Source of the DNA: a virus
Strand: one strand, 5' to 3'
Virus record (IMG/VR): IMGVR_UViG_3300048589_001057
Span: 1 to 64,000 of that record
DNA: 64,000 nt
How positions within the stretch are numbered: position 1 is the stretch's first letter; each line of letters begins with the position of its first letter. Shown in pieces: positions 6,525 to 21,661 of this stretch. The position numbers were made by a program, and so were the translations under genes. The notes below the pieces were generated by a model. It ran no database searches. It saw nothing but the letters and a program-made list of their open reading frames with translations, and was not told the DNA's origin.

Positions 6525-7996
6525 AGAATTACACTAAAGCGGATTTTGCTATGCTGCAAAAAGCCGCAGTAAACGTGTTCTATTTTGCTTCACTAGCTTT
6601 TATCAGACACCCAGTAAAAGGAAGAGTTAATTTCAAACTCTACCCATACCAGATTAAAGTGTTATGGTATTTCTTAACTCAACGCTTCAACATAGTCCTA
6701 AAATTTAGGCAAGCTGGTTTAACAGAACTTATTGCCTTGTATGTTTTATGGTTCGCTTTATTCCATCCAAACAAGAACATCCAGATTATTTCAATCAAGG
6801 ACCGTGTAGCTAAGAGAGTATTAGGTAGAATCAAATACATATACCGAAATCTTCCACCAATCCTTCAAACTCCAGTGATTAATGGTAGACCCGGGGATTT
6901 AGGTACTAATACTGAAATGGAATTCAGTAATGGTTCTATCATTACTTCCATACCCACCACGGAAGATGCGGGTAGGTCTGAAGCTGTTTCCCTATTGGTA
7001 ATAGATGAAGCTGCCATGGTAAGGTGGGCTACTAAAATCTGGGCAGCTGCCTTCCCAACCCTATCCACAGGGGGTTCTTCAATTATCAACAGTACCCCAT
7101 ATGGAGTTGGTGGATGGTACCATCAAACCTGGGTAGAAGCTCTATCTGGTGGTAATGGATTCAATCCAATTCGTTTAAGGTGGGAGATGCACCCCGAGAG
7201 GGATGACGCATGGTATCAAACCATGCGATCAGTATTAGGGCCAAAAAGAACTGCCCAGGAAATAGATGGTGACTTCTTATCATCTGGAGATTCAGTGTTC
7301 GATCTTCTAGACATCCGAGCTATTGAAGATAGCCTAGATGATTCTACAGTTACAAGAAAACTAAATGGTAATCTTCTTATCTTCAAAGCCGCTCGTAGGA
7401 ATCAAAAATGTTTCATTGGGGCAGACGTTGCCTCAGGAAGATCACGAGATTATTCTAGCTTTAGTATAATGGATAGAACGGGGGATGAATTGGCTTGTTT
7501 TAAGGGTAAAATACCCCCCGATAGGTTTGCCGATCTCCTAATGCATTGGGGGCGGGAGTATAACTACGCTCAAATTGCCCCAGAAGCAAATTCCATTGGT
7601 TTAGCTACTGTTTCTAGAGTGGCTAATGAGGGTTATCCCAATCTATACTACAGTACCTCCATCCTTAAAGAAAAGGGGAAGAGGAAACCCAAAGTAGAAA
7701 AAATCCCCGGTTGGCTTACTACTTCTAAGAATAGGCCTGTAATCATCGATGAATTGGAATCTGATATTCGTAATGATCAAGTAAACATCAAAAACCCATT
7801 TTTCGTATCCGAAGCATATACCTTTATCTATGATGGTGCCAATAGGCCAGTAGCTATGGGAAAAGATAAGAAAAGGGGATCCCAAGATGAAGAACTGGAA
7901 GATGACTCTTTTTCTGATGATGCAATATTTGGAGAATGTATCACTAATTTTACCCGAAAAGGGAAAATCAACACAATAATTATAGCCCCCCAATAA
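6503..7996 (+). CDS. terL: terminase large subunit
   Basis: LYPYQ, KFRQAGLTE (Walker A), LLVIDEAA (Walker B), STPYG, nuclease IGADVASG...DYS...DDA. Confidence 0.95.
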   Translation: MGQRPEIKNYTKADFAMLQKAAVNVFYFASLAFIRHPVKGRVNFKLYPYQIKVLWYFLTQRFNIVLKFRQAGLTELIALYVLWFALFHPNKNIQIISIKDRVAKRVLGRIKYIYRNLPPILQTPVINGRPGDLGTNTEMEFSNGSIITSIPTTEDAGRSEAVSLLVIDEAAMVRWATKIWAAAFPTLSTGGSSIINSTPYGVGGWYHQTWVEALSGGNGFNPIRLRWEMHPERDDAWYQTMRSVLGPKRTAQEIDGDFLSSGDSVFDLLDIRAIEDSLDDSTVTRKLNGNLLIFKAARRNQKCFIGADVASGRSRDYSSFSIMDRTGDELACFKGKIPPDRFADLLMHWGREYNYAQIAPEANSIGLATVSRVANEGYPNLYYSTSILKEKGKRKPKVEKIPGWLTTSKNRPVIIDELESDIRNDQVNIKNPFFVSEAYTFIYDGANRPVAMGKDKKRGSQDEELEDDSFSDDAIFGECITNFTRKGKINTIIIAPQ

Positions 7997-9460: not shown

Positions 9461-10933
9461 ATGCCATTTGAAATACTCGAAATGAGAGGCTCTCATGCAA
9501 TGATCCTCCCCCACTTACCTACTTCAATCCCTATGGAAGGAGTTGATAAAGTAATGCACTCAGCTAAGGAAGATAGTTTAGAGAAGTTGGGCCTATTTGA
9601 TTCCGGCTCTCCCAATTATTATACCTATTATCCCGAGGTTACTCAGGCGGATATGCAGCCGGAGGATGGGGATTTTATTTATCCAGTATTTAGGCTGTTA
9701 TCTAAAATCATAATAGCCCCCAAACAAATGGCTGTAGATTTTACCTCTAAGGATGTTCTTAAGAATTCTATGGATTTACTGGTAGGCCAATCCATATTCT
9801 TGGATCATGAGAGTATAACAGGGAGTGTAATGGGTGTAGTTCAATCCGTTCATTGGCAAGAGTCCTACAAAATTGGTGGTGTTACTATTCCTGCCGGTAT
9901 TAATGGGGTACTCAAAATAGATGCTAAATCAAACCCCAGGGTTGTACGGGCTATTATGATGGATCCCCCAAGTATCCACTCTTGCTCAGTAACTATCAAT
10001 TTCCACTGGGTAAAATCCCATGACTTACCGGATAATGAATTCTATAGTAAGTTAGGGACTTTTGATAATTCAGGAAAAAGAATAAGAAAAGTGGTAGATG
10101 ATATTAACCTCTACTTCGAATTATCCCTGGTTCCTCATGGGGCTGACCCATTTGCCAAAAAACTCACAGGAGGTAAGATAGTAATGGCAAAACAAGCAAG
10201 TAAGCACTACCAGCTATCTCTATCAGCAAACCAGGTGAATAGAGAACCCTATATGTCTGTAACTGGTACTGGTGATTTAGTACCCTACCAGTCAGCCACT
10301 CTCAACTTTCGGCAGATTAACCTTTTCGATACTAATTCTTTTAATATTAACAACCTTAATAACGACGAAATGAAATTTACAGACCTCCTCCTAAGCTTAG
10401 GCCTCACTATTGAGCAAATCCCTGATGAAGAAGCTTTGATAGCTCACTTCCAAAGTAATGCCTCCAGGATAACCGATCTGGAATCAGAGGTATCTACGCT
10501 TACTTCAGAAAATGAAAACCTAACCGGTGAAGTATCTACTCTCACTAATTCTATTGAAGAGTTGAATACCCAAATTGCCACCCTCACCGATAACCAAGCT
10601 ACACCAGAAGTTCTGGCTATGCGAGATGCTGGTTTAGCTCATCTTATGCAAGTAAGGTCACAGGCTTTATCCTTTTATAAACTTCTTAAAGGAGATAAGG
10701 CTTCAGAGGTTATTGTTAATTCCATTAACTCTGCAGACCTCGAAGCGGCCTTAGCATTTGCCCAAAACTTCAAGGAAGAATACGAAGCTGCTGTACCTTT
10801 ATCCTGTGGAAAATGTGGTAGTACCAATGTATCTCGGAAAACTCCCAAAGTACCATTCAATTCCACCGAAGGCCGTAAGGGCTACTTGGATAAGGCCAGC
10901 AAAAAGGAAACTGAAAGCTTCTTAAGCAAGTAA
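9461..10933 (+). CDS. prohead protease / scaffold fusion
   Basis: Position after portal. Protease-like FLDHE and ELSLVPHGADP. C-terminal coiled coil and CxxC. Confidence 0.7.
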   Translation: MPFEILEMRGSHAMILPHLPTSIPMEGVDKVMHSAKEDSLEKLGLFDSGSPNYYTYYPEVTQADMQPEDGDFIYPVFRLLSKIIIAPKQMAVDFTSKDVLKNSMDLLVGQSIFLDHESITGSVMGVVQSVHWQESYKIGGVTIPAGINGVLKIDAKSNPRVVRAIMMDPPSIHSCSVTINFHWVKSHDLPDNEFYSKLGTFDNSGKRIRKVVDDINLYFELSLVPHGADPFAKKLTGGKIVMAKQASKHYQLSLSANQVNREPYMSVTGTGDLVPYQSATLNFRQINLFDTNSFNINNLNNDEMKFTDLLLSLGLTIEQIPDEEALIAHFQSNASRITDLESEVSTLTSENENLTGEVSTLTNSIEELNTQIATLTDNQATPEVLAMRDAGLAHLMQVRSQALSFYKLLKGDKASEVIVNSINSADLEAALAFAQNFKEEYEAAVPLSCGKCGSTNVSRKTPKVPFNSTEGRKGYLDKASKKETESFLSK

Positions 10934-10935
10934 TC

Positions 10936-11340
10936 ATGTGGTACTCAGACAAAAACTTAAACTTATTAGTCTGGGTTTTAGTTGCTTTCCTCATGGTATT
11001 TCAGAATGCCTATACAATGAGGTGGGGCATGGCTTACAGGGACATGCCTAAAAGGTGGTATAAAACCTGGAAAACTATATCATTCTGGATTAGGGTTATG
11101 CCATTCCCCATCATCTGGTTTCAGCATAGCTTGGCATGGGCTTTAATCTATGGGATCATAGTCTCAGTATTTTATACTCTAATAGAAAACCTCTTTCTCG
11201 GTAAAGGATTTTTTAAAAGCCCAATCCCACAGGGTAATCCCACGCAATTAGTTAACATATTATTTCATGAGGCTTTAGTAGTAACCTTCAAACTTTGTGT
11301 AGTGGTTCTTCTATTCATAGCCATAATATTTAACTGGTAA
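10936..11340 (+). CDS. multi-TM membrane protein (paralog of 17642-18007)
   Basis: Hydrophobic segments; shared NAY...WG and W..I.F.IR pattern. Confidence 0.7.
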   Translation: MWYSDKNLNLLVWVLVAFLMVFQNAYTMRWGMAYRDMPKRWYKTWKTISFWIRVMPFPIIWFQHSLAWALIYGIIVSVFYTLIENLFLGKGFFKSPIPQGNPTQLVNILFHEALVVTFKLCVVVLLFIAIIFNW

Positions 11341-11994
11341 ATGAAACTCCAGAAATTTTCCCGGCGGTTAGGTAATTCTGAACTTCTTAATACCTCCTTA
11401 ATCCTATCAATCAATCCCCTGGGTAGCGATACAGTAATATCCTATAAATACTTTGAGAAGGTTATAAATATAGTTCTAACTGGCACAGTTAGCGAGATTT
11501 TATCCACCCTATCAACAAATCGTAAGTATTCTATAGATTTACTGGTACTACATGTTATCTCTATTGATGGCCTTGTAAAAAACCAGGATATGCCAATCAA
11601 TTTATCCTCTGTAATTCGGGGGGTAACCCGGGGAAGCCATAGTCTCTTATATTGTGATGCCTCATACTTTAACAGGGACACTAAGAGTGTTTCTATTGAA
11701 GTATCAGAAACTCTGGATCAAATAGTTACCGATCAATTATTTACATTTGAAGCAGGTACTGGGCCCACTAGCTTAGCTCTAAGTGGGGTCGACTTGATAG
11801 ATGGAGATACTTTGATTACCCATGATATGGGTACTAGTCTTATGGGGGTATTCATCCAAATTGATGGCATATGGCAGCCATGGTCATTCCACTATGGGCA
11901 AGATGAAAGTGAATTAACCCCAAGTGAACAACTCATTTCAGTATATATTCCTTTCTCGGAATCCAAAACAGTAAACTTAAACCTAATATTCTAA
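11341..11994 (+). CDS. hypothetical protein; N-terminal domain paralogous to 18070-19164
   Basis: MKL.KF......EL.N, RG......LLYC, V.ET.D.I. Confidence 0.7.
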   Translation: MKLQKFSRRLGNSELLNTSLILSINPLGSDTVISYKYFEKVINIVLTGTVSEILSTLSTNRKYSIDLLVLHVISIDGLVKNQDMPINLSSVIRGVTRGSHSLLYCDASYFNRDTKSVSIEVSETLDQIVTDQLFTFEAGTGPTSLALSGVDLIDGDTLITHDMGTSLMGVFIQIDGIWQPWSFHYGQDESELTPSEQLISVYIPFSESKTVNLNLIF

Positions 11995-11996
11995 GT

Positions 11997-14900
11997 ATGC
12001 CTAAAATATTTGCTTTATACATTCTACTCCTAGTTTCCCCCTTACTGGGTTGGTCTCAAGTGGCTTTAACCCGTACACCCGGAGATTATCAAGTAACTCG
12101 GGGGCTAAAGATTGGGAATTCCACTTGGGTTACTCCGGGCCTTATAAAATACACCAGTAATACTTGGTGGGGGTATAATGGCTCATCCTGGGTTGATCTT
12201 GGTAATATCACACCCCAAACTCTAACCCTAAGTAATGACACCATTTATCTTACTAATGGGGGATTTGTTGTATTACCCGAGAGCTCAAATTTTGATGGCC
12301 AATACAGTAGTTTATCGGGGGCTCCAACAAATGTAAGCTATTTTATTAATGACGCCGGATACCTTACCGAGGATACCGCTTTAAGCGAAGCTCAGGTAGA
12401 TTACTATGTATCTAATAATGGTTTTGTAACTGGTACCCCATGGTTATCTGAAGGTTTTATAACTGATGGGAATATCGGTTGGGATAATTCTTATGGTTTT
12501 ATAGTATCAGAAGTTGATGGGAGTGTTACTAATGAGATACAAGAACTCAGTTTAGAGGGGGATACAATTTCCCTAACTAATAGCCCAAGTATTGGAATCC
12601 CTATATCTAATTGGAATGATGCTTACTACCGAAGTAGGTATTTAGATTATGTACTAGATAGTACCATTATTCAAGGTACACCAGGATCATCCGGGCTAGG
12701 GATAGATAGTACTTACTATACTTTACCAACTTATTCTGGTACCACATATTATATTAATCCCACTCCTGGTACTCCCGCTGGGAGTGGTAGTTTTGAAAGC
12801 CCATATAACTCTTGGGCTGGGGTAACTTTTACTGAAGGTTGTACTTATCTACAATTGAGAGGTACAACCTATAACTCTGCTGGCTCTATAACCCCCGGGG
12901 CTTCAGGAGTTACTGTTGGTATAAAGATAGGGGCTTATGGGGATAGCACATTAGCTAAGCCTAAAATCATAGTCTCCAATACAGACCCAGTAATTAGGTT
13001 ATCCGGAGATAATATTTTTCTGGTTAAAGATTTAGAAATACAAGCTTCTAGGTATGGCTTAGGCATACGTCATGATGGCCCTGGAGAAGTTTGGGTTTAT
13101 AACTGTGATATACATGGTGGAACTCATAATTACTGGAAATATGGCCCAACCACATCCCAAGGTACTGTAAAATTACTATACTCCTCATTTCATGATTCCT
13201 GGACTGATAATATATATGGGGATGATATTGAAGAAATAGAAATAGGCCATTGTAACTTCTATGATTGTAACATGGCTTATTTTACTTATCCCGGTGATGA
13301 CGGTTCTTCAGCAGCTCCTGGGGATAACATACAATTAGCTACTGCCTATGGACCATTAACTTTTCATATTCATCATTCTGTAATAGATCACAGTTCTACT
13401 GGGCATAAATTTTGTTTCATAGCTTGGAATGGGTACACTTATGTTGATACCGCTTGGAATGCTATGAATGGTTTAGTAACAGATAATTTAATCATAGGTT
13501 CACGTAGCCAAGGCTTTCTAGGATCCAATGGCCTTGTATATCTAGGGGATATGCAGGCTAAAGATACAGTGATATTCGAAAGGAATATATTTACTGATGG
13601 TAGTGCCGCAGTATATGCAGAATCTTCTAACATACGCCTATCCTATAACCTCATCCACAATGTTAGTACAGGGGTGGTTTTATCCCAAGCCAGAGCTGCT
13701 CTAGTATTACATAATAATACTTTAGCTAATTACTCAAGCGCAGGGGTGGGAGCAATCTCTAGCACATCTGTAATTAGCCGTAATAACGCCTTTTCTTCTG
13801 GGGGAGCATATGCATATAATCCCAATGCTACTTATGACAGTGACTATAATTACTTTCAGGGTTACGTGTCAAGTGGGAGCACAACATTGGCATCATGGCA
13901 GGGGTCTAGTACCAATGATGATAACTCAGATACAGGGGACCCATTATTCAAAGGCGTAGACAGTGCGGATTATAGACCTAATACTGGTTCCCCCCTACTT
14001 GATAATGGGGTTCCTCTTGGGTATAGCTATGACTTAAGTAGAGATGCTATTACAAATCCCCCAAGTATTGGGGCTTACCAAAATACAGTAGCCCCACCTT
14101 CCGGGGAGTATATTCCTGGTACGCCAGATGAAATCTCAGTTGATTCAGCTTTATTAGTGGGTAATATTAAAGTTATCTTAGGGGATTACACCGGTGGGAA
14201 TTATGCTGAATTTAGTGATGGTAATTTACTATTCCATGGTGATGCTGATTTACAATTAGATTGGCGTAATACCCCCTTAGCTAGGGGAGAAACAGGGGAA
14301 ATCCAATTTAATGAAGTGGGGTTATTATCTACCGACAGCTTATTTCACTATGAACGGTCATCAAAGGTATTATCTGTACCATCATTACAGACCACCTCTA
14401 TCAAATTTGGGGATAACTCTATTATGACATCAGCTTCTACTGGTAGTGGCTCTGGTAATTTTCTAGTATCTACCATTCAACCTGGAGATACTCTACCCAT
14501 GCCCCCTCCAGATATTATTTATATGCCAGTAGACACTATCACGGATGATACTCAAGTAGATGTAACTATTCCAATGGGCTATGCCTTAACTTATGTTTAT
14601 TGGGATAATCTAACCACAGTATCAGAGATTAATGTCATAATAGGTGGTGGAGCAGATAACATACATGGGGGAATACTTACCCCAGCTAAGACCATACAAC
14701 CCATAACTGCTCCAAGTATAATGGCCACAGAAGTGAGCTTGGGTATTACAGGTAATGAGTCTCCTGGGATTATCCCAACTTTACGATTAGAAAAAACCCC
14801 ATTCTATACCTATGTTCCACCGGTACCCACTATACCTCCTTACCTAGATGGTAATACTAGTATGTGGATAGCCACTGATAGTACTGAATTTTATGACCTA

Positions 14901-15656
14901 ACCGATGACAATTACGTTAAGATACTTTTTGATAAGGCCAAAAGGAAGAACACCTCGGGGTCTGAAGTTTTACCCTTACCTTTAGATCTAACAGAGTCAC
15001 AATGGACTAAAACTGGTACTGTAACAGCCCATACGGCCAATACCTTTACCACGAGTAATCCTGGTGGGGCTTATAGGTTATTAACTATGCCCATGAGAGC
15101 TGTAATGAAAGCTAATATTACAGGTACTTCAACCAATACTCCTTTATCCATTTATAACAATAACAATGGGGTATCTGCCAATCTAATTGCAGAAGCCGGG
15201 GATGGTGATGCCTATTTCAGTTCTATTGGAAATTATTTCTACTTTAGGGTTAATTCCGCTGCTGATATTACCATTAGTAGTGCCACAGTAAAAAGGGTGG
15301 ATGGTAATCACTTATCCCATAGTACAACATCTATCAGACCAACTTTTGCGGATAATGCAGTAGAATTTAATGGTACTTCCCAATACCTTAAAACTGCCAC
15401 TGGTACTACTGTAACCTACCAACATGCTTTTATTATAGGTAGGAAGGGTTCTGGGGATTACCACCTATACACCTCCCTCACTGGCTTTGGGGAATTATCC
15501 TCTGGGGTATTAACATTGGGGGCTGATGGCGCTGCTACAACCTTCTATGATGTGGATGTAAAAGAATTGGTATTAAGAACAGATGATGACACCAGTATCA
15601 ACAATCAAATTAAGGCTTACTTAAAAGCAAAATATTCAGTAACAGAAGCACCATAA
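11997..15656 (+). CDS. large putative secreted or fibre protein with right-handed beta-helix (pectin-lyase-like) domain
   Basis: Signal-peptide-like N-terminus, beta-helix repeats, and GDPLF...DYRP...SPLLDNG...IGAYQ closing motif. Confidence 0.75.
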   Translation: MPKIFALYILLLVSPLLGWSQVALTRTPGDYQVTRGLKIGNSTWVTPGLIKYTSNTWWGYNGSSWVDLGNITPQTLTLSNDTIYLTNGGFVVLPESSNFDGQYSSLSGAPTNVSYFINDAGYLTEDTALSEAQVDYYVSNNGFVTGTPWLSEGFITDGNIGWDNSYGFIVSEVDGSVTNEIQELSLEGDTISLTNSPSIGIPISNWNDAYYRSRYLDYVLDSTIIQGTPGSSGLGIDSTYYTLPTYSGTTYYINPTPGTPAGSGSFESPYNSWAGVTFTEGCTYLQLRGTTYNSAGSITPGASGVTVGIKIGAYGDSTLAKPKIIVSNTDPVIRLSGDNIFLVKDLEIQASRYGLGIRHDGPGEVWVYNCDIHGGTHNYWKYGPTTSQGTVKLLYSSFHDSWTDNIYGDDIEEIEIGHCNFYDCNMAYFTYPGDDGSSAAPGDNIQLATAYGPLTFHIHHSVIDHSSTGHKFCFIAWNGYTYVDTAWNAMNGLVTDNLIIGSRSQGFLGSNGLVYLGDMQAKDTVIFERNIFTDGSAAVYAESSNIRLSYNLIHNVSTGVVLSQARAALVLHNNTLANYSSAGVGAISSTSVISRNNAFSSGGAYAYNPNATYDSDYNYFQGYVSSGSTTLASWQGSSTNDDNSDTGDPLFKGVDSADYRPNTGSPLLDNGVPLGYSYDLSRDAITNPPSIGAYQNTVAPPSGEYIPGTPDEISVDSALLVGNIKVILGDYTGGNYAEFSDGNLLFHGDADLQLDWRNTPLARGETGEIQFNEVGLLSTDSLFHYERSSKVLSVPSLQTTSIKFGDNSIMTSASTGSGSGNFLVSTIQPGDTLPMPPPDIIYMPVDTITDDTQVDVTIPMGYALTYVYWDNLTTVSEINVIIGGGADNIHGGILTPAKTIQPITAPSIMATEVSLGITGNESPGIIPTLRLEKTPFYTYVPPVPTIPPYLDGNTSMWIATDSTEFYDLTDDNYVKILFDKAKRKNTSGSEVLPLPLDLTESQWTKTGTVTAHTANTFTTSNPGGAYRLLTMPMRAVMKANITGTSTNTPLSIYNNNNGVSANLIAEAGDGDAYFSSIGNYFYFRVNSAADITISSATVKRVDGNHLSHSTTSIRPTFADNAVEFNGTSQYLKTATGTTVTYQHAFIIGRKGSGDYHLYTSLTGFGELSSGVLTLGADGAATTFYDVDVKELVLRTDDDTSINNQIKAYLKAKYSVTEAP

Positions 15657-15659
15657 ACC

Positions 15660-15941
15660 ATGGATAAAATCAAAACAAAATCTGGAGAATTAGCCATCAT
15701 ACAAGTTACACAAGGTGGCTTAGTAGTGGCAGAAGAAGATGGTACCTTTAATATAGGGGTCCCTTTTTCCTTAAAAAATGATGGGGAAGATGATGCCGAA
15801 TTGGTGGTGAGGTTGGCAGCTCAAGAGGTGGGGGAAACTTATCCCCTACTTCTTAGGGCTAACTCCTATTTCTCGGAAGAGCTCATTGGGGATATCATTA
15901 GTGGTATTCCCGCTACTCACTCTATAAAATGGGGTTGCTAA
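15660..15941 (+). CDS. small protein upstream of DGR target
   Basis: PFSLKNDG...KWG. Recalled resemblance to small genes preceding DGR targets in Bacteroidota phages. Confidence 0.6.
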   Translation: MDKIKTKSGELAIIQVTQGGLVVAEEDGTFNIGVPFSLKNDGEDDAELVVRLAAQEVGETYPLLLRANSYFSEELIGDIISGIPATHSIKWGC

Positions 15942-15942
15942 A

Positions 15943-17259
15943 ATGGGAACTATAGGATTAGGTATAAGAGTTGGAAAGGTTCACATTGGCTCAAATGTGA
16001 ACCAATGGTGGTATGGCATTGAATTTGACGAAACAGCAGCAGCAAGCACCATGACACGCATCGCAAGCAGTGAAGATGCAATGTCTTTACATGCAAGTTT
16101 ACCTATACAATCAAGGCAAAGAAGATGTATACTAAGCAATGCAGGAATAGTACAATATTACTTAGATAATAATGATAGCACTAAGAAAGCAGATGGTAGT
16201 GCAGCAGCATTAGATGGTTCGGCAGGTCATGTCATGGTTGAGATACCTCAATTTTATTATAAAATCGAGCGATCAGGAAATATAGCAAGAATGAAAATCA
16301 GTGATTATAACTTACCTGATTTTACATTTAGTCCTAAAATGTACCTGGGCGCTTTCGAGGGGGCAGTTAAGCGCTCAACATCTCAGCTCATGAGCGTAAT
16401 TAACGCAACTGCTGACTTTCGGGGCGGCAATAACAACGCCTCTTGGGATGCTCAGCCCAACAGCCTGCTTGGCAAACCAGCCACTGCAATCAGCCTTACA
16501 AACTTTCGCGCATTTGCCCACAATAACGGGTCAAAATGGTCTGCAAGGTCATACATGTCTCGCGCAAAGATGAACATGCTCTATATGGTTGAGTATGCAA
16601 ACAGGCACGTTCAGGCGGCTTACAATGAGGCTTTGACAGCACAGGGGTATAAGCAAGGCGGGCTTGGAGACGGCGTTTCAAACGTTAACGGTACAAACTG
16701 GGGTACCTTTTCAGGCTACTATCCGTTTGTTCCATGCGGCAGAACCACTGCGCTAGGCAATAAGTCAGGCTTTGTTAACTACGTAGTTGCAGGATTCACC
16801 GGTGGTGATATTACCGTCCCGGTGCCAACATACCGCGGAGTTGAGCACCCTTATGGGCACATTTGGGAATGGGAGGACGGAATACTATATAACATTCAGG
16901 CTAATGATGCAGGCGGGCAATCTCAGGTATTTATATGTGATAACCCCGCAAATTATGCCGATGTACTCACAAACTACAGGCAGGTTGGCTTGCTCCCACG
17001 AAATGAAGGTTACATAACCAGGTGTCTGCTTGATGAGGGGCTTACAATTCCAACTGAGGCGACCGGAGGCAGCTCAACAACGCGCTACTCGGATTATTTC
17101 TATACATCAATACCCGGCTCTGGTAGTGCTATTAGAGGGTCTCTGGTGTCTGCGAATGCGAGTGCTGGCGCGGATGCGGGCCTCTTTTGCCTGAATACGC
17201 TTCACGTTCCGGCGAAGACGAATGCGACCTTCGGGTCTCGGCCTTGCTTCATTCCGTAG
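15943..17259 (+). CDS. DGR target protein (C-terminal CLec/FGE-like variable domain), likely adhesin
   Basis: YRGVEHPYGHIWEWEDG motif; C-terminal VR ending GSRPCFIP that matches the downstream TR. Confidence 0.9.
   Translation: MGTIGLGIRVGKVHIGSNVNQWWYGIEFDETAAASTMTRIASSEDAMSLHASLPIQSRQRRCILSNAGIVQYYLDNNDSTKKADGSAAALDGSAGHVMVEIPQFYYKIERSGNIARMKISDYNLPDFTFSPKMYLGAFEGAVKRSTSQLMSVINATADFRGGNNNASWDAQPNSLLGKPATAISLTNFRAFAHNNGSKWSARSYMSRAKMNMLYMVEYANRHVQAAYNEALTAQGYKQGGLGDGVSNVNGTNWGTFSGYYPFVPCGRTTALGNKSGFVNYVVAGFTGGDITVPVPTYRGVEHPYGHIWEWEDGILYNIQANDAGGQSQVFICDNPANYADVLTNYRQVGLLPRNEGYITRCLLDEGLTIPTEATGGSSTTRYSDYFYTSIPGSGSAIRGSLVSANASAGADAGLFCLNTLHVPAKTNATFGSRPCFIP
17135..17249 (+). repeat. DGR variable repeat (VR)
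   Basis: 115-nt ungapped match to 17336-17450; 14 of 15 mismatches are at TR adenines. Confidence 0.95.
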
Positions 17260-17264
17260 AACGA

Positions 17265-17292
17265 GGCGCGATCGCCGAAGGCCGAAAAACGG
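17265..17292 (+). promoter_or_regulatory. GC-rich hairpins downstream of the VR (candidate DGR homing hairpin)
   Basis: GGCG-CGAT-CGCC (17265-17276) and CCG-AAAAA-CGG (17282-17292). Confidence 0.5.
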
Positions 17293-17335
17293 AGCACGGG
17301 GCGATTTTAGTTCTTTGATTAAGGTTGTAGTTGGT

Positions 17336-17450
17336 GAGGGTATCTGGTGTCTGCGAATGCGAATAATGGCGCGAATGCGGGCCTCTTTTACCTGAATACG
17401 AATAACGTTCCGGCGAATACGAATGCGAACATCGGGTCTCAGCCAAGCTT
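17336..17450 (+). ncRNA. DGR template repeat (TR)
   Basis: AAT/AAC-rich copy of the VR, followed by a spacer hairpin TGCCA-CT-TGGCA. Confidence 0.95.
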
Positions 17451-17563
17451 TTTAATTAATTGATTTCACCGACTAAACCCTGCCACTTGGCAAAAAATGA
17501 CAATTTTAAACCGCTTTATGGTAGTCACATGGCGAAGTATAGCGGCTTAACAGAAGCAAAACT

Positions 17564-17638
17564 ATGAAACGAATTTCACATCTGTACGAAAAATTATGCA
17601 GCATGGATAACCTCATCCTGGCTGATGCTAATGCTTAA
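17564..17638 (+). pseudogene. truncated DGR reverse transcriptase (24-aa N-terminal stub)
   Basis: MKRISHLYEKLCSMDNLILADANA* matches the typical DGR-RT N-terminus (MKR...LY..I.S.ENL..A) at the expected position. No YxDD core follows. Confidence 0.8.
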
Positions 17639-17641
17639 AAC

Positions 17642-18007
17642 ATGGAAACAACAAACTTATTAATATTACTTTTTATAGGGTTGTTTTTAGCCTTATGGAA
17701 CGCTTACGTAATTGAATGGGGACTATCTACTAATTTAGTTTATCGTAGCAATATGAGTAAACTTTGGCATAGGATAGGTTTCCTTATTCGGGCTGCACTT
17801 GCTTGTTATGTTACGGCTTCATACGGATTGTTCTATGGATGGTTATCAGTAATAGTCCTTTGGCAGCTTTACGATGTGATAATCAATTTAGCACGTAAAA
17901 TGCCAGCCTTCTATGTTGACGAAAAGACCCGTAAAAGCAAGATGTCCACAGTAACGTGGATAGCCAAAGCAGGCTGGTTTTTAGGTGGATTAGCTTTCTT
18001 ATTTTAG
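17642..18007 (+). CDS. multi-TM membrane protein (paralog of 10936-11340)
   Basis: NAYVIEWG...KLWHRIGFLIR. Confidence 0.7.
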   Translation: METTNLLILLFIGLFLALWNAYVIEWGLSTNLVYRSNMSKLWHRIGFLIRAALACYVTASYGLFYGWLSVIVLWQLYDVIINLARKMPAFYVDEKTRKSKMSTVTWIAKAGWFLGGLAFLF

Positions 18008-18069
18008 TTCACCTTTGAAACAATTGGAACAAAAAACCCATTAATTAACCCTTAATTCCGGAGATCACC

Positions 18070-19164
18070 ATGAAGCTATTAAAATTTACTCCCATAGGGA
18101 AAAGCCCTGAACTATTTAATATTGATAATATTAAGTTTTCTTATCCCGATGGCTCTGGTACAAAGTTTACTTACGACTACTTTGGTAAACTTAAGCCCAC
18201 CAGGGTATCAGAAAGTTATGAAACTTTCTTAGCTTCTATCCAGGAGAACCGGCCATTCAATATCGAAAATCTTGTGTTATCCATTTTGAACGTGGATTAC
18301 CGGGCATTTAATATACAGGCTAACTTACCCCTAAAATGGGTAGTAAGGGGAGAGCAAACTAGTAATGGTACTCTTCTGTATTGCCATGGCCAAGCCATCT
18401 CATTATCAGATGAACCTATAGTAGTAAGAGTAACTGAAACCATTGATGAGATTATATCCCTTCAAGCTTCACTAATTCCCTTATCCATATCATCCATAGG
18501 GGGGACTGAATATGAGTTAGTCATAAGTGATGCTGGCAAGTATTTACGATTTTTTAGCCCTAATCCAGTAAGTGTTTTTGTTCCTCCGCATGAAAACGTT
18601 CCGTTACCTATTGGTATACCCATTACTCTAGAACAAGCTGGTGAGGGAGTTATTACGGTAATGGCTAGTGAACTGCCAATCGCTACTATCAATGGGCTCC
18701 CTTGTTCTGGTGGGCAATATAAAACTCTTCAATTAATACAAGTCGAGGAAGATACTTGGACTTGCATAGGCGGGGTAACTCCAGAAATACAATGGGATTA
18801 TGAGGGGGTATTAGTAGCTGGCATGGTTGTTGAGGAAGAGGCTATAGTTACGGGTTATGCGGATACGCCTAATTTTGATACCTTAGGTACAATCAACCCC
18901 AGTCCAATTACTTTATCCAATAACCGGCAGGTTAATCTTCTAGTCCATGATAATGGGGGGGGAATGCTCGGGGTAGCAGGTTTACTAGCCCTTGAGGCTA
19001 CCGAATCCACTCCTGAAGCAGTAGGTTTTATACAGGTTTCCATTGACAATACTGTTTATGAAATTGGGGAATCCGGTATAGTAGAAATGGTGGAATCTCC
19101 ATTTACTGACGGCGTTGAATATAACATAAAAATTAGAGTTATGGAACAACCTTCAAATACCTAA
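18070..19164 (+). CDS. putative structural protein; N-domain paralog of 11341, fibre-like middle domain
   Basis: Shared N-terminal motifs; YELVISDAGK...Q.G.G...GQY..L......W..IG module seen in phage fibre proteins. Confidence 0.65.
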   Translation: MKLLKFTPIGKSPELFNIDNIKFSYPDGSGTKFTYDYFGKLKPTRVSESYETFLASIQENRPFNIENLVLSILNVDYRAFNIQANLPLKWVVRGEQTSNGTLLYCHGQAISLSDEPIVVRVTETIDEIISLQASLIPLSISSIGGTEYELVISDAGKYLRFFSPNPVSVFVPPHENVPLPIGIPITLEQAGEGVITVMASELPIATINGLPCSGGQYKTLQLIQVEEDTWTCIGGVTPEIQWDYEGVLVAGMVVEEEAIVTGYADTPNFDTLGTINPSPITLSNNRQVNLLVHDNGGGMLGVAGLLALEATESTPEAVGFIQVSIDNTVYEIGESGIVEMVESPFTDGVEYNIKIRVMEQPSNT

Positions 19165-19167
19165 ACC

Positions 19168-19380
19168 ATGTACACCGACCTCTTCTTCATTCTCTTCCTA
19201 TCAGTCACCGGATATTATCTGGCTGAATATATTAGGACTCTTATCACTAAGGACATAAGAAACCTTACTAAGTATTTAAGGTATTCACCAATCATTATGA
19301 TGGTCCTAGCTGTTCTTCTATTTCTAGCCCTCCTTGCTGATGGCACTTTGTTTAATACTCCAGTAACTAATTATTTCTAA
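19168..19380 (+). CDS. small 2-TM membrane protein
   Basis: Two hydrophobic segments. Confidence 0.6.
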   Translation: MYTDLFFILFLSVTGYYLAEYIRTLITKDIRNLTKYLRYSPIIMMVLAVLLFLALLADGTLFNTPVTNYF

Positions 19381-19382
19381 CC

Positions 19383-19721
19383 ATGAAACCATTTATCAAA
19401 GAATCCCTGACTGATACCAGAGGGTACCCTTCATCAACCCGGGTAATTGCCTACAGGCTGGCTCTGTGGTTTTTCCCCTTGTTTAATCTCCTATACATAG
19501 GGTTGCTTACCCTTATTATATATATGGTACTACGCCAAGGGAAAAGCATTGATGATGTGGTAGTTAGCTTTACCCTAACCACTTCAGGCTTTATACTTAG
19601 CCTTGATACCTTACTGTTGGGGTATGTGTTTGCCTCAAAGAGGACTGGCAAGTTAGCTGAAACTTCTGAGATAATTGAAATTGCCAAGGCCACTAATGCC
19701 GATCCATTGGTAGAAAAATAA
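19383..19721 (+). CDS. putative holin
   Basis: N-terminal SSTR motif, two TM helices and a charged C-terminus. Confidence 0.55.
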   Translation: MKPFIKESLTDTRGYPSSTRVIAYRLALWFFPLFNLLYIGLLTLIIYMVLRQGKSIDDVVVSFTLTTSGFILSLDTLLLGYVFASKRTGKLAETSEIIEIAKATNADPLVEK

Positions 19722-19785: not shown

Positions 19786-20511
19786 ATGCCTACATACTTA
19801 GGAAACAAAACAAAGGCTATATTTCTAAACACAGAAAGCCATAAGTTAGCTTTGGAATTTGAAGCTATCGGAAAAATTGGAGTGATCACAGTATCTGCTG
19901 ATTTAGTAGCTGCCGATGTGGTTGCCACCACTATCAACGGCCAAACTGCCACTGTTACCTGGGGCACAAGTCACCTTGCCACTATGACAGCTTTGGCTGT
20001 AGCCATTAAAGCTTTATCCGGAGTATCTTATGCTAAAGTACATGGGGCCACTAGCAGGATAATTTCTTTCCTCATGGCTGATGATTCTGTTATACCCGTT
20101 ATCACCAATACCTCAGTTACCAATGGGGGAGCAGGTACCGCAACTGTAATTACCAGTGTAATGGATGCTACTATTAATATAGGTACTCCAGTAATCCTAA
20201 TTGGGGTTGGTGAAAAAGTAGCCCCTGCGGCTTTGTATGACCATTTCGGCTTAACTTCGGCTATTGTCAACTTGATAGGTATTAGTATGCATTCTCCTGG
20301 ACCTGGAGAACTCCTAACCGTAATTATGAAGGGTTATGCCGTTATTTTCGCACAGGCTTCCTCAGGCGTAGCAGTTGGTCCAGTGGATTACAGCGGCCAT
20401 GATTCTACCACCGGGTATGATACCTATATAACCGGGACTTCATCGGCTTTGGGCTTTGCCCTTGATGCCGGGTCTGATGGGGATGTCATTAGGGTATTAC
20501 TCTGTAAATAA
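19786..20511 (+). CDS. capsid decoration / cement-like protein
   Basis: Immediately upstream of the MCP; ends GFALDAGSDGDVIRVL, typical of cement proteins. Confidence 0.65.
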   Translation: MPTYLGNKTKAIFLNTESHKLALEFEAIGKIGVITVSADLVAADVVATTINGQTATVTWGTSHLATMTALAVAIKALSGVSYAKVHGATSRIISFLMADDSVIPVITNTSVTNGGAGTATVITSVMDATINIGTPVILIGVGEKVAPAALYDHFGLTSAIVNLIGISMHSPGPGELLTVIMKGYAVIFAQASSGVAVGPVDYSGHDSTTGYDTYITGTSSALGFALDAGSDGDVIRVLLCK

Positions 20512-20557
20512 GCTCAAGCTCAGTTCATTTTAAATAAAGCAATTAACAAACTCTACC

Positions 20558-21661
20558 ATGGATATCACAAAATACGAACAATCCGAGTTCAGAGGTAAAA
20601 TCGAGGAAGCCGTAAGGTTCGGCTTAAACATCCGAAGTGATGCAAACCATCCCAAGGATATTTCATTACCTGAAATTATCAAGGAAAAATTCAATCTGGG
20701 CCTCTCAGATTTCCTGTTTGAACTGGGGATTAATCCTTCCGAGGACACTCTCCATAATATCTACACTGCCGTTGACAATGACATAAGGTGGTTAGTACCT
20801 GAATTTTTCCGCGAAGCTCTTTTGCTGGGTTACCGGGCAGCTCCAATATGGCCTTCAATTATTGCTTCCGAGGAGAATACCACTGGGTTGAGTCAAATCA
20901 TGCCATGGTATAATATGTCCGATGTAGCTCCAAGGAAAGTTGGAGAGGGCGAAACTATCCCGGTTGGTACGGTTTCTTATGGGAGTAAGAAATTCAGTAT
21001 TTACAAAATTGGTAGGGGTATTAAAATTACCGATGAAGTATCTCAGTATTCCAGCTTAAAACTGGTTTCCATTTTCCTCCGGGATTTTGGGGTAAAGTTT
21101 GGGCATGCTGCTGATACCCTTGCTATCGACACCCTTATTAATGGGGAACAAACTGACGGCTCAGAATCAGCTCCAGTAATCGGGGTTACCGACACTGTTG
21201 CTGGTAAACAATACAAGGATCTTCTCCGCTTATGGATTCGCTTGGCACGTATTGGTCGTACACCAACAACCATTATCGGGGGTGAGGCCGCTGCCTTAAG
21301 CACCCTGGATATGGATGAATTTAAGAAAAGGGAATCCGGTACAACGGAGAAGACCTTAGTACTAAAGACTCCTGTCCCCTCCTCTACTAATTACTTTATC
21401 CATGGTAATGTACCGCCAAACCAGGAGATCATGGTTGACCCAATGTCTGCCCTTATCAAGTTTAATGCCCAACCATTGAAGGTAGAATCCGAAAGGATCG
21501 TATCAAATCAAACTGAGGCCTTCTACGCTACCCTCACTACTGGGTTTGCTAAACTATTCCGCGATGCTGCGATCATTATGGATAGCAGTGTACTATTCTC
21601 CAGTTATGGATTCCCATCTTACTTGGATGTTGACCCATACCAAAACGTAACCATCGAGTAA
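20558..21661 (+). CDS. major capsid protein (HK97 fold)
   Basis: 367 aa; VGEGETIP, K.GRGIKITDE. Followed by a terminator. Confidence 0.9.
   Translation: MDITKYEQSEFRGKIEEAVRFGLNIRSDANHPKDISLPEIIKEKFNLGLSDFLFELGINPSEDTLHNIYTAVDNDIRWLVPEFFREALLLGYRAAPIWPSIIASEENTTGLSQIMPWYNMSDVAPRKVGEGETIPVGTVSYGSKKFSIYKIGRGIKITDEVSQYSSLKLVSIFLRDFGVKFGHAADTLAIDTLINGEQTDGSESAPVIGVTDTVAGKQYKDLLRLWIRLARIGRTPTTIIGGEAAALSTLDMDEFKKRESGTTEKTLVLKTPVPSSTNYFIHGNVPPNQEIMVDPMSALIKFNAQPLKVESERIVSNQTEAFYATLTTGFAKLFRDAAIIMDSSVLFSSYGFPSYLDVDPYQNVTIE

Follow-up and report, generated by a model that had tools for sequence, protein, structure and literature searches.

The DNA stretch analyzed here (the window) comprises the first 64 kb (64,000 nt) of an 80,518-bp virus record from IMG/VR (IMGVR_UViG_3300048589_001057) that has terminal repeats and is rated 100% complete. 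It carries a diversity-generating retroelement (DGR) cassette in which the target gene, the variable repeat (VR), the template repeat (TR), and the spacer between the TR and the reverse transcriptase (RT) gene are kept, while the RT gene itself stops after 24 codons. Near-identity to an RT-bearing cassette from a Bacteroidetes genome indicates that the enzyme was lost recently. We consider it probable that the window holds a freshly disabled DGR, with the fiber tip of the phage frozen at one variant; diversification in trans by the RT of a prophage is a less likely alternative. The features of the cassette and its flanks are collected in Table 1.

The Cassette Ends within the RT Gene

A six-frame RVT_1 search, which reads through stop codons, of the whole 80,518-bp record detected no RT domain, and tblastn with the RT of related cassettes against the phage genome returned a short stub only. 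The sequence-only reading of this region had described the same stub peptide at the place of the RT gene, an unrelated membrane gene beginning at 17642, and the lack of an RT core in the window. The stub is exactly as claimed there, and the absence of an RT core extends from the window to the rest of the genome. The window cassette encodes no RT of the DGR clade and, because the genome lacks one, it cannot run by itself.

Four related contigs (L001-L004) were recovered from IMG/VR with the target protein as query (L001, UViG_3300038335_000025; L002, UViG_3300029821_000150; L003, IMGVR_UViG_3300040971_000062), and a fifth relative, L038 (WSXX01000009.1, a 145.6-kb scaffold of a Bacteroidetes metagenome-assembled genome), was recovered using the relatives' RT as query. 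With the window they form the set of six cassettes compared throughout. A search of IMG/VR for more cassettes with a spacer 28-mer returned only four contigs, all already known. By blastn, the cassette is 82-84% identical to L001-L004 and 90% identical to L038, and all of these matches end at 17634. In L001, L002, L004, and L038, a 331-aa open reading frame (ORF) begins at the position of the stub (17564 in the window), so that an intact RT does occupy this place in these relatives. The ORF starts with MKRI(T/S)NLYE.LCSMDNL.LADANA and continues with RKGK...; the stub peptide equals its N terminus, with 87.5% identity over residues 1-24. DGR RTs are marked by the motif [LIV]GxxxSQ. The relatives' proteins match RVT_1 (E = 1e-18 to 1e-19) and contain both an IGNYLSQ motif and a YADD box.

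Nucleotide homology to every relative stops at 17634. Beyond this point the relatives, together with contigs from three studies (sequencing runs X1, X2, and X3), read CCGCAAAGGCAAGC... into the RT, whereas the window reads TTAAAACATG into the gene of a 121-aa membrane protein; the unbroken RT-bearing reading across the breakpoint is ...GCTAATGC-CCGCAAAGG. At the joint, the window has TTAAAAC-ATG, that is, a stop codon, 3 nt, and then the start of the membrane-protein gene. The latter is a gene in its own right, encoding a protein of full length relative to its homologs, and proteins 67-93% identical to it are encoded on short Logan/ENA contigs. An RT split by an insertion, with the remaining part lying further downstream, was also considered and rejected, since neither an RT remainder nor any of the genes found downstream of the RT in the relatives is present in the phage genome.

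Table 1. Positions of the DGR cassette parts, the breakpoint, and flanking features in the window
Feature	Position	Strand	Remarks
DGR target gene, tail protein, 438 aa	15943-17259	+	PHROG phrog_5302 'tail protein', E 2.6e-108; last 41 codons supplied by the VR
G+C-rich segment shared with DGR cassettes of temperate, Bacteroidota-associated phages	16186-17634	+	G+C 47.8%
Variable repeat (VR)	17135-17249	+	115-nt ungapped match to TR
Window-specific VR T>G	17217 (TR position 83)	+	T in six TRs and five other VRs
VR 3' end, IMH-like (vs IMH*-like TR)	17231-17249	+	fixed differences at TR positions 106, 110, 111
Small GC hairpin GGCG-CGAT-CGCC	17265-17276	+	4-bp stem, 4-nt loop; in centroid fold
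Template repeat (TR)	17336-17450	+	29 adenines, mostly in AAT/AAC codons; 114/115 identical to L038 TR
Window-specific TR C>A	17342 (TR position 7)	+	C in the other five TRs and all six VRs
TR-RT spacer RNA, resembles Rfam RT-17	17476-17563	+	RF03020, 36.4 bits, E 3.8e-5
RT stub, 24 codons plus TAA made at the breakpoint	17564-17638	+	equals residues 1-24 of relatives' 331-aa RTs
Breakpoint	17634/17635	.	left: DGR cassette homology; right: unrelated phage DNA
Right flank, second copy of two-gene module (121-aa membrane protein, 364-aa protein)	17642-19164	+	paralogous to 10936-11994

VR and TR Differ Mainly at Template Adenines

The alignment of VR and TR confirmed the coordinates and the mismatch count given earlier: the two repeats match without gaps over 115 nt with 15 mismatches, 14 of which fall at TR adenines, while one is T>G. 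For at least 14 of 15 mismatches to fall on the 29 TR adenines, the hypergeometric probability is P = 2.8e-9, and the changed VR codons are mostly AAT or AAC in the TR. In the five relatives pooled, all 89 VR/TR mismatches are at adenines. The adenine mismatches had been presented as a DGR signature, and the bias is indeed beyond chance; however, four of the 14 appear to have another origin. TR positions 106, 110, and 111 show the same VR-TR difference in all six cassettes, and they are best described as constant 3'-end differences of the kind that separates the initiation of mutagenic homing (IMH) element from IMH*, not as hypervariable sites. By likeness to phage BPP-1 (PMC3240598), the 3' end of the VR would play an IMH-like role. 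The mismatch at position 7 is a point mutation of the window TR, because only this TR has an A there. About 10 truly variable adenine sites are left in the window, at VR positions 28, 30, 31, 39, 55, 66, 67, 69, 94, and 96, still with P = 2.5e-6.

The T>G mismatch lies out of reach of adenine mutagenesis. It changes codon 425 from AAT to AAG (Asn to Lys), and T is also found at the equivalent of 17217 in the relatives' contigs from runs X1-X3. A second VR and a remote target of the TR were sought in the phage genome, but the VR described here is its single VR-like site.

A Very Recent Common Ancestor Links the Truncated and Working Cassettes

The comparison with L038 gives two very different divergences along the cassette. 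In the body of the target gene (16336-17134) the two sequences are 13% diverged, with 75 synonymous and 21 non-synonymous codon differences. Between 17092 and 17634, by contrast, there are only three non-adenine differences, at 17217, 17335, and 17342, the first and last of which are derived in the window and the second in L038. Just 2 differences are present in the 385 nt from 17250 to 17634; the TR-RT spacer (17451-17563) is identical at 113/113 positions, and the RT stub at 71/71 nt, synonymous sites included. In addition, a 675-nt contig from run X3 matches the window without a difference over 17378-17634 before running into the RT. Because of the near-identity to L038 and the X3 contig, the truncated cassette and working cassettes must have a very recent ancestor in common, and the loss of the RT is likewise recent. 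The sequence-only reading had offered two outcomes, a recently frozen DGR or one served in trans; these data uphold a genuine cassette and a recent loss and leave the choice between the two outcomes undecided.

With VR adenine sites excluded, the window and L038 differ at 9-25 positions per 100 nt before ~17035 and at ~0.5 per 100 nt after 17092, corresponding to segment identities of ~87% up to ~17091 and ~99.5% from 17092. The cassette is thus a mosaic of an older fiber body and a young TR-RT module, which suggests that TR-RT modules are swapped between cassettes by recombination near the VR.

RT-Bearing Relatives Diversify, and One Has Also Lost the Enzyme

Across 10,307 nt, L001 and L002 show 99.91% identity; they differ at nine positions, every one of them a TR-adenine site of the VR (positions 7135-7174). 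Since the two differ nowhere else, the pair provides direct evidence, at the level of sequence, that the RT-bearing form of the cassette is active and diversifies in nature.

The RT gene of L003 (7547-8161) is also incomplete. Here 879 bp are missing inside the RT, with a 4-nt microhomology at the joint and 94-95% identity to L001 on both sides. Because of the deletion, the first 12 codons left of the RT are fused, in another frame, to its 3' end and then to the downstream 180-aa ORF; no RT was found within the 35.6 kb of this record. All 21 VR/TR mismatches of L003 are at adenines. Among the six loci, of which L001 and L002 are near-identical copies, the RT has therefore been lost at least twice, independently, with VR, TR, and spacer kept each time. 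The RT-bearing relatives have no capsid homolog, and the L002 record is classed as a provirus.

A Second VR Allele Occurs on the Same Gene Background

A 224-aa protein fragment, P0013, encoded by a 1002-nt JGI contig, is identical to the window target at 183/183 residues before the VR and differs from it at nine VR codons (398, 407, 408, 411, 420, 425, 427, 429, and 430). Such a pair shows very recent diversification on the exact gene background of the window. Eight of the nine changes in P0013 are reachable from the TR by adenine changes; Lys420, whose template codon is AAT, is not, like Lys425 of the window. In each known VR allele of the window lineage, a single AAT template codon has become Lys, and the codon concerned differs between the two alleles. 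These non-adenine Lys codons could reflect point mutation under selection for Lys, or a less specific RT.

Both alleles keep a C-type Ser codon (TCT-type in P0013) at TR position 7, though the window TR has A there; their templates probably had C at this position. Because the two VR alleles carry C and the TR has A, the window TR has probably been unused since its own C>A mutation. The P0013 contig does not extend as far as 17634, and its source may be either an RT-bearing sibling or a genome carrying the same deletion.

A Disabled DGR Is the Probable Reading

Of the explanations we weighed, a freshly disabled DGR with its fiber tip frozen at one variant is the one we regard as probable. The cassette keeps its non-enzymatic parts, namely, a target gene that encodes a C-type-lectin fold and ends in the VR, the TR, and the conserved spacer RNA between TR and RT. 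At 17634/17635, a deletion or an illegitimate recombination would have cut the RT gene after codon 24 and thereby placed the cassette next to an unrelated two-gene tail module; the cut could have been made either by the right-hand crossover when the cassette was captured or by a later deletion. From then on the VR would change by ordinary point mutation only, and it is most likely static now. The window-specific non-DGR changes in the two repeats would mark the onset of ordinary drift or selection. Several observations weigh against a disabled DGR: the cis elements have not decayed in a way that would demonstrate disuse, both the junction and a monomorphic VR rest on assembly and not on reads, and a second VR allele exists on an otherwise identical background, in a fragment that does not fix its order relative to the loss of the RT.

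It is possible, though we think it unlikely, that the cassette is instead a non-autonomous DGR, the RT of an L038-like prophage diversifying the phage VR by way of either the phage TR RNA or the prophage's own near-identical TR RNA. A phage served in this manner would keep hypervariability without the cost of the enzyme. The helper must reside in another genome, that of a prophage or a co-infecting phage, because the whole phage genome is without an RT. The TR, the spacer RNA, and the 5' end of the RT are 99-100% identical to those of the RT-bearing L038 cassette, and near-identity of this degree implies recent DNA exchange and, hence, a shared host. The provirus classification of L002 is consistent with such a helper, as are the C at position 7 of the window VR, which agrees with the L038 TR and not with the phage's own, and the P0013 allele, whose gene background is that of the window. 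Moreover, avd-TR-brt act in trans from a plasmid (PMC5758913), and for Thiohalocapsa it has been proposed that degenerate loci are served in trans from within the same genome (PMC10907252). On the other hand, an exact search of IMG/VR and JGI metagenome contigs with the 26-mer spanning 17634/17635 gave no match and thus no sibling with the same junction; the window-specific non-adenine change in the VR fits a static VR at least equally well; and P0013, with its possible origin in an RT-bearing sibling, does not require a helper. The wider picture, in which a phage carries only the cis parts of a DGR and has its fiber tip rewritten by the RT of a resident prophage, much as a short interspersed nuclear element (SINE) lives on a long one (LINE), strikes us as doubtful.

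We regard it as very improbable that the truncation is an assembly artifact or a minority variant, i.e., that the contig is a chimera of two genomes fused at 17634/17635 or stems from a deletion mutant in a mixed population. The record is a metagenome assembly, and the junction coincides with shifts in G+C and in homology. However, the left edge of the cassette shows no sharp joint, the 438-aa ORF running through it in frame with protein homology from residue 17; no repeat of a length that might mislead an assembler is evident at the right joint, past which the relatives share nothing; only 3 nt separate the TAA stop from the ATG of the next gene, a tight fit; and the genome, rated complete, closes with an exact 127-bp overlap of its ends. 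Six neighboring proteins were all found on two JGI contigs, the longer of 80,527 bp, although these are perhaps not independent assemblies. Logan contigs of four sequencing runs were also compared, the best run sharing at most 22% of words; in wastewater run X6, two contigs of depth 2 are identical to the window allele and end at 17147 and 17619.

Least credible of all is an old fossil that lost its RT long ago and whose VR/TR similarity is a slowly decaying relic, since the one non-adenine VR change and the one TR-specific change that would suit it are outweighed by the 2 differences in 385 nt from RT-bearing L038 and by the 71/71 match of a stub with intact ATG and reading frame, all next to a target body that is 13% diverged.

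The Target Is Predicted to Be a Tail Protein with a C-Type-Lectin Fold

Of the 438 residues of the target, those from 398 to 436 are encoded by the VR. Sequence searches of the protein against Pfam and PDB returned nothing. An AlphaFold2 model built with a 48-sequence alignment, drawn from a domain family of 2763 representatives, reached a predicted local distance difference test score (pLDDT) of 93.6, compared with a pLDDT of only 32 when a 9-sequence alignment was used. The best fold matches of the model were TaqVP (5VF4; Foldseek E = 8e-9, probability 1.0), formylglycine-generating enzymes (FGE), and Mtd (1YU0-4). The target is thus predicted to have a C-type-lectin/FGE fold, which is typical of DGR targets. 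It had been labeled an adhesin in the sequence-only reading; from the PHROG and fold matches, a phage tail protein with a C-type-lectin fold is the more precise description.

The domain is arranged differently in different members of the family. In the window and in L003 it forms a stand-alone protein of ~438 aa, whereas in L001 and L004 it is the C-terminal part of a single ~1000-aa protein, the N-terminal half of which is a beta-helix region 31-33% identical to a separate 1219-aa protein of the window. The target ORF of L038 is at least 847 aa long and runs off its locus, and our comparison covers its C-terminal part. Across the family, N termini of many lengths are joined to the domain.

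Spacer RNA, Hairpins, and the Accessory Gene

The spacer RNA adjoins the start of the RT on the upstream side. Its score against RF03020 is below the gathering score of 40.4 bits, so it is here called RT-17-like and not assigned to that family; the same element scores 33.9-35.3 bits in L001, L003, and L004. RT motifs have been described upstream of RT genes, RT-10 lying between the TR and brt of BPP-1 (PMC5737381). Hairpins had been noted after both repeats. The 4-bp stem downstream of the VR exists, but it is weak, and the folding energies of both spacers are no better than those of shuffled sequences (z = 0.06 on the VR side and 0.45 for the other). At the site of this hairpin, L001-L003 have a different, longer GC-rich stem. 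A scan for sigma-70 promoters and terminators was uninformative; between the target gene and the gene after it, nothing resembling a terminator was found.

The absence of an Avd gene from the window, which had also been pointed out, holds, but it is not a loss, because none was detected beside the RT in the relatives either: the ORFs next to the RT in L001, L004, and L038 have no Pfam or NCBIfam match, and no gene lies between VR and TR. Absence of Avd is a trait of the cassette family. Avd is not universal among DGRs (PMC5758913).

The Cassette Appears to Be Foreign to the Phage Lineage

The carrier is a contractile-tailed phage of 80.5 kb with genes for terminase, portal, prohead protease, major capsid protein, tail sheath, and tape measure. 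Megablast of the phage against GenBank phages gave no match. The whole genome has a G+C content of 39.9%, in which the segment containing the cassette stands out as an island (Table 1). Inside the head module, an 8.8-kb block of genes of tail-fiber type (10936-19721) sits between the prohead protease gene (9461-10933) and the scaffold/capsid genes (19786-21661) and contains, in order, a first copy of the two-gene module, the 1219-aa beta-helix protein, a 93-aa protein, and the DGR target, with the RT stub abutting the second module copy. Among backbone relatives, whose capsid is 47-68% identical, all 23 of 23 with a protease homolog are without the block, the protease lying ~150-700 bp from scaffold/capsid, and the five complete ~80-kb relatives contain neither an RT nor a target homolog. 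Because the backbone relatives are without the cassette, its G+C content is that of an island, and its RT-bearing relatives belong to another lineage, we conclude that it was imported, by tail-fiber recombination from DGR-bearing temperate phages of Bacteroidota.

The two copies of the flanking module differ considerably from each other. The membrane proteins, of 134 and 121 aa, have 29% identity (E = 0.001), and the 217-aa and 364-aa proteins share a 132-aa N-terminal domain with 30% identity (E = 2e-17), so the duplication seems to be old. The 364-aa protein has a weak match to a minor tail protein PHROG. No relative of it was found in IMG/VR, and none of the 121-aa protein in IMG/VR or JGI metagenomes.

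Discussion

Surveys of DGRs are seeded on the RT gene; cassettes that have lost it are systematically missed, and the frequency with which DGRs are switched off is not captured. Two of the six loci compared here have shed the RT by what appear to be independent, clean, and recent deletions with the cis elements intact, and this suggests that the enzyme is readily shed once a useful fiber variant is fixed. The window also offers a concrete test case for complementation of DGRs across genomes, with an L038-like prophage as putative helper. If trans service were true, the evolution of phage host range would depend on the prophage content of the host.

With the DGRs of temperate phages of Bacteroides and other Bacteroidota, such as hankyphage (PMC6199706), the window shares the inferred host phylum, C-type-lectin targets, and temperate or proviral intact relatives; it differs in its carrier, a contractile-tailed 80.5-kb phage whose backbone relatives have no DGR. 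The TaqVP protein of Thermus aquaticus (PDB 5VF4) resembles the window target in being a DGR variable protein with a C-type-lectin/FGE-type fold, but the two have only 12-14% sequence identity, with a template modeling (TM) score of 0.41-0.47, and the context of TaqVP is cellular and not that of a phage tail.

Another of the closest known systems is the DGR of Bordetella phage BPP-1, with the order mtd-VR, avd, TR, brt. Both cassettes have a tail-fiber target with a 3' VR, a downstream TR, adenine mismatches in AAY codons, and constant differences at the 3' ends of VR and TR, and the predicted fold of the window target is related to Mtd. Unlike in BPP-1, the RT of the window ends after 24 codons, its cassette family is without a detected Avd, and the TR follows the VR after an 86-nt spacer with no gene between; the spacer RNA is RT-10 in BPP-1 and resembles RT-17 in the window.

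RT-less, 'degenerate' DGR loci have already been published for a bacterium, Thiohalocapsa PB-PSB1 (PNAS 2024, PMC10907252). As in the window, these loci retain VR/TR or target but have either no RT or an RT pseudogene, structural variants that still have the enzyme occur alongside them, and the same question arises of diversification in trans versus diversification before the disruption. For phages, our literature search, whose coverage was incomplete, found no paper describing RT-deleted DGRs as such. The degenerate loci of Thiohalocapsa share a chromosome with complete DGRs of the same class, whereas the window belongs to a phage genome without any RT, and it is set apart by the clean and recent loss of its enzyme.

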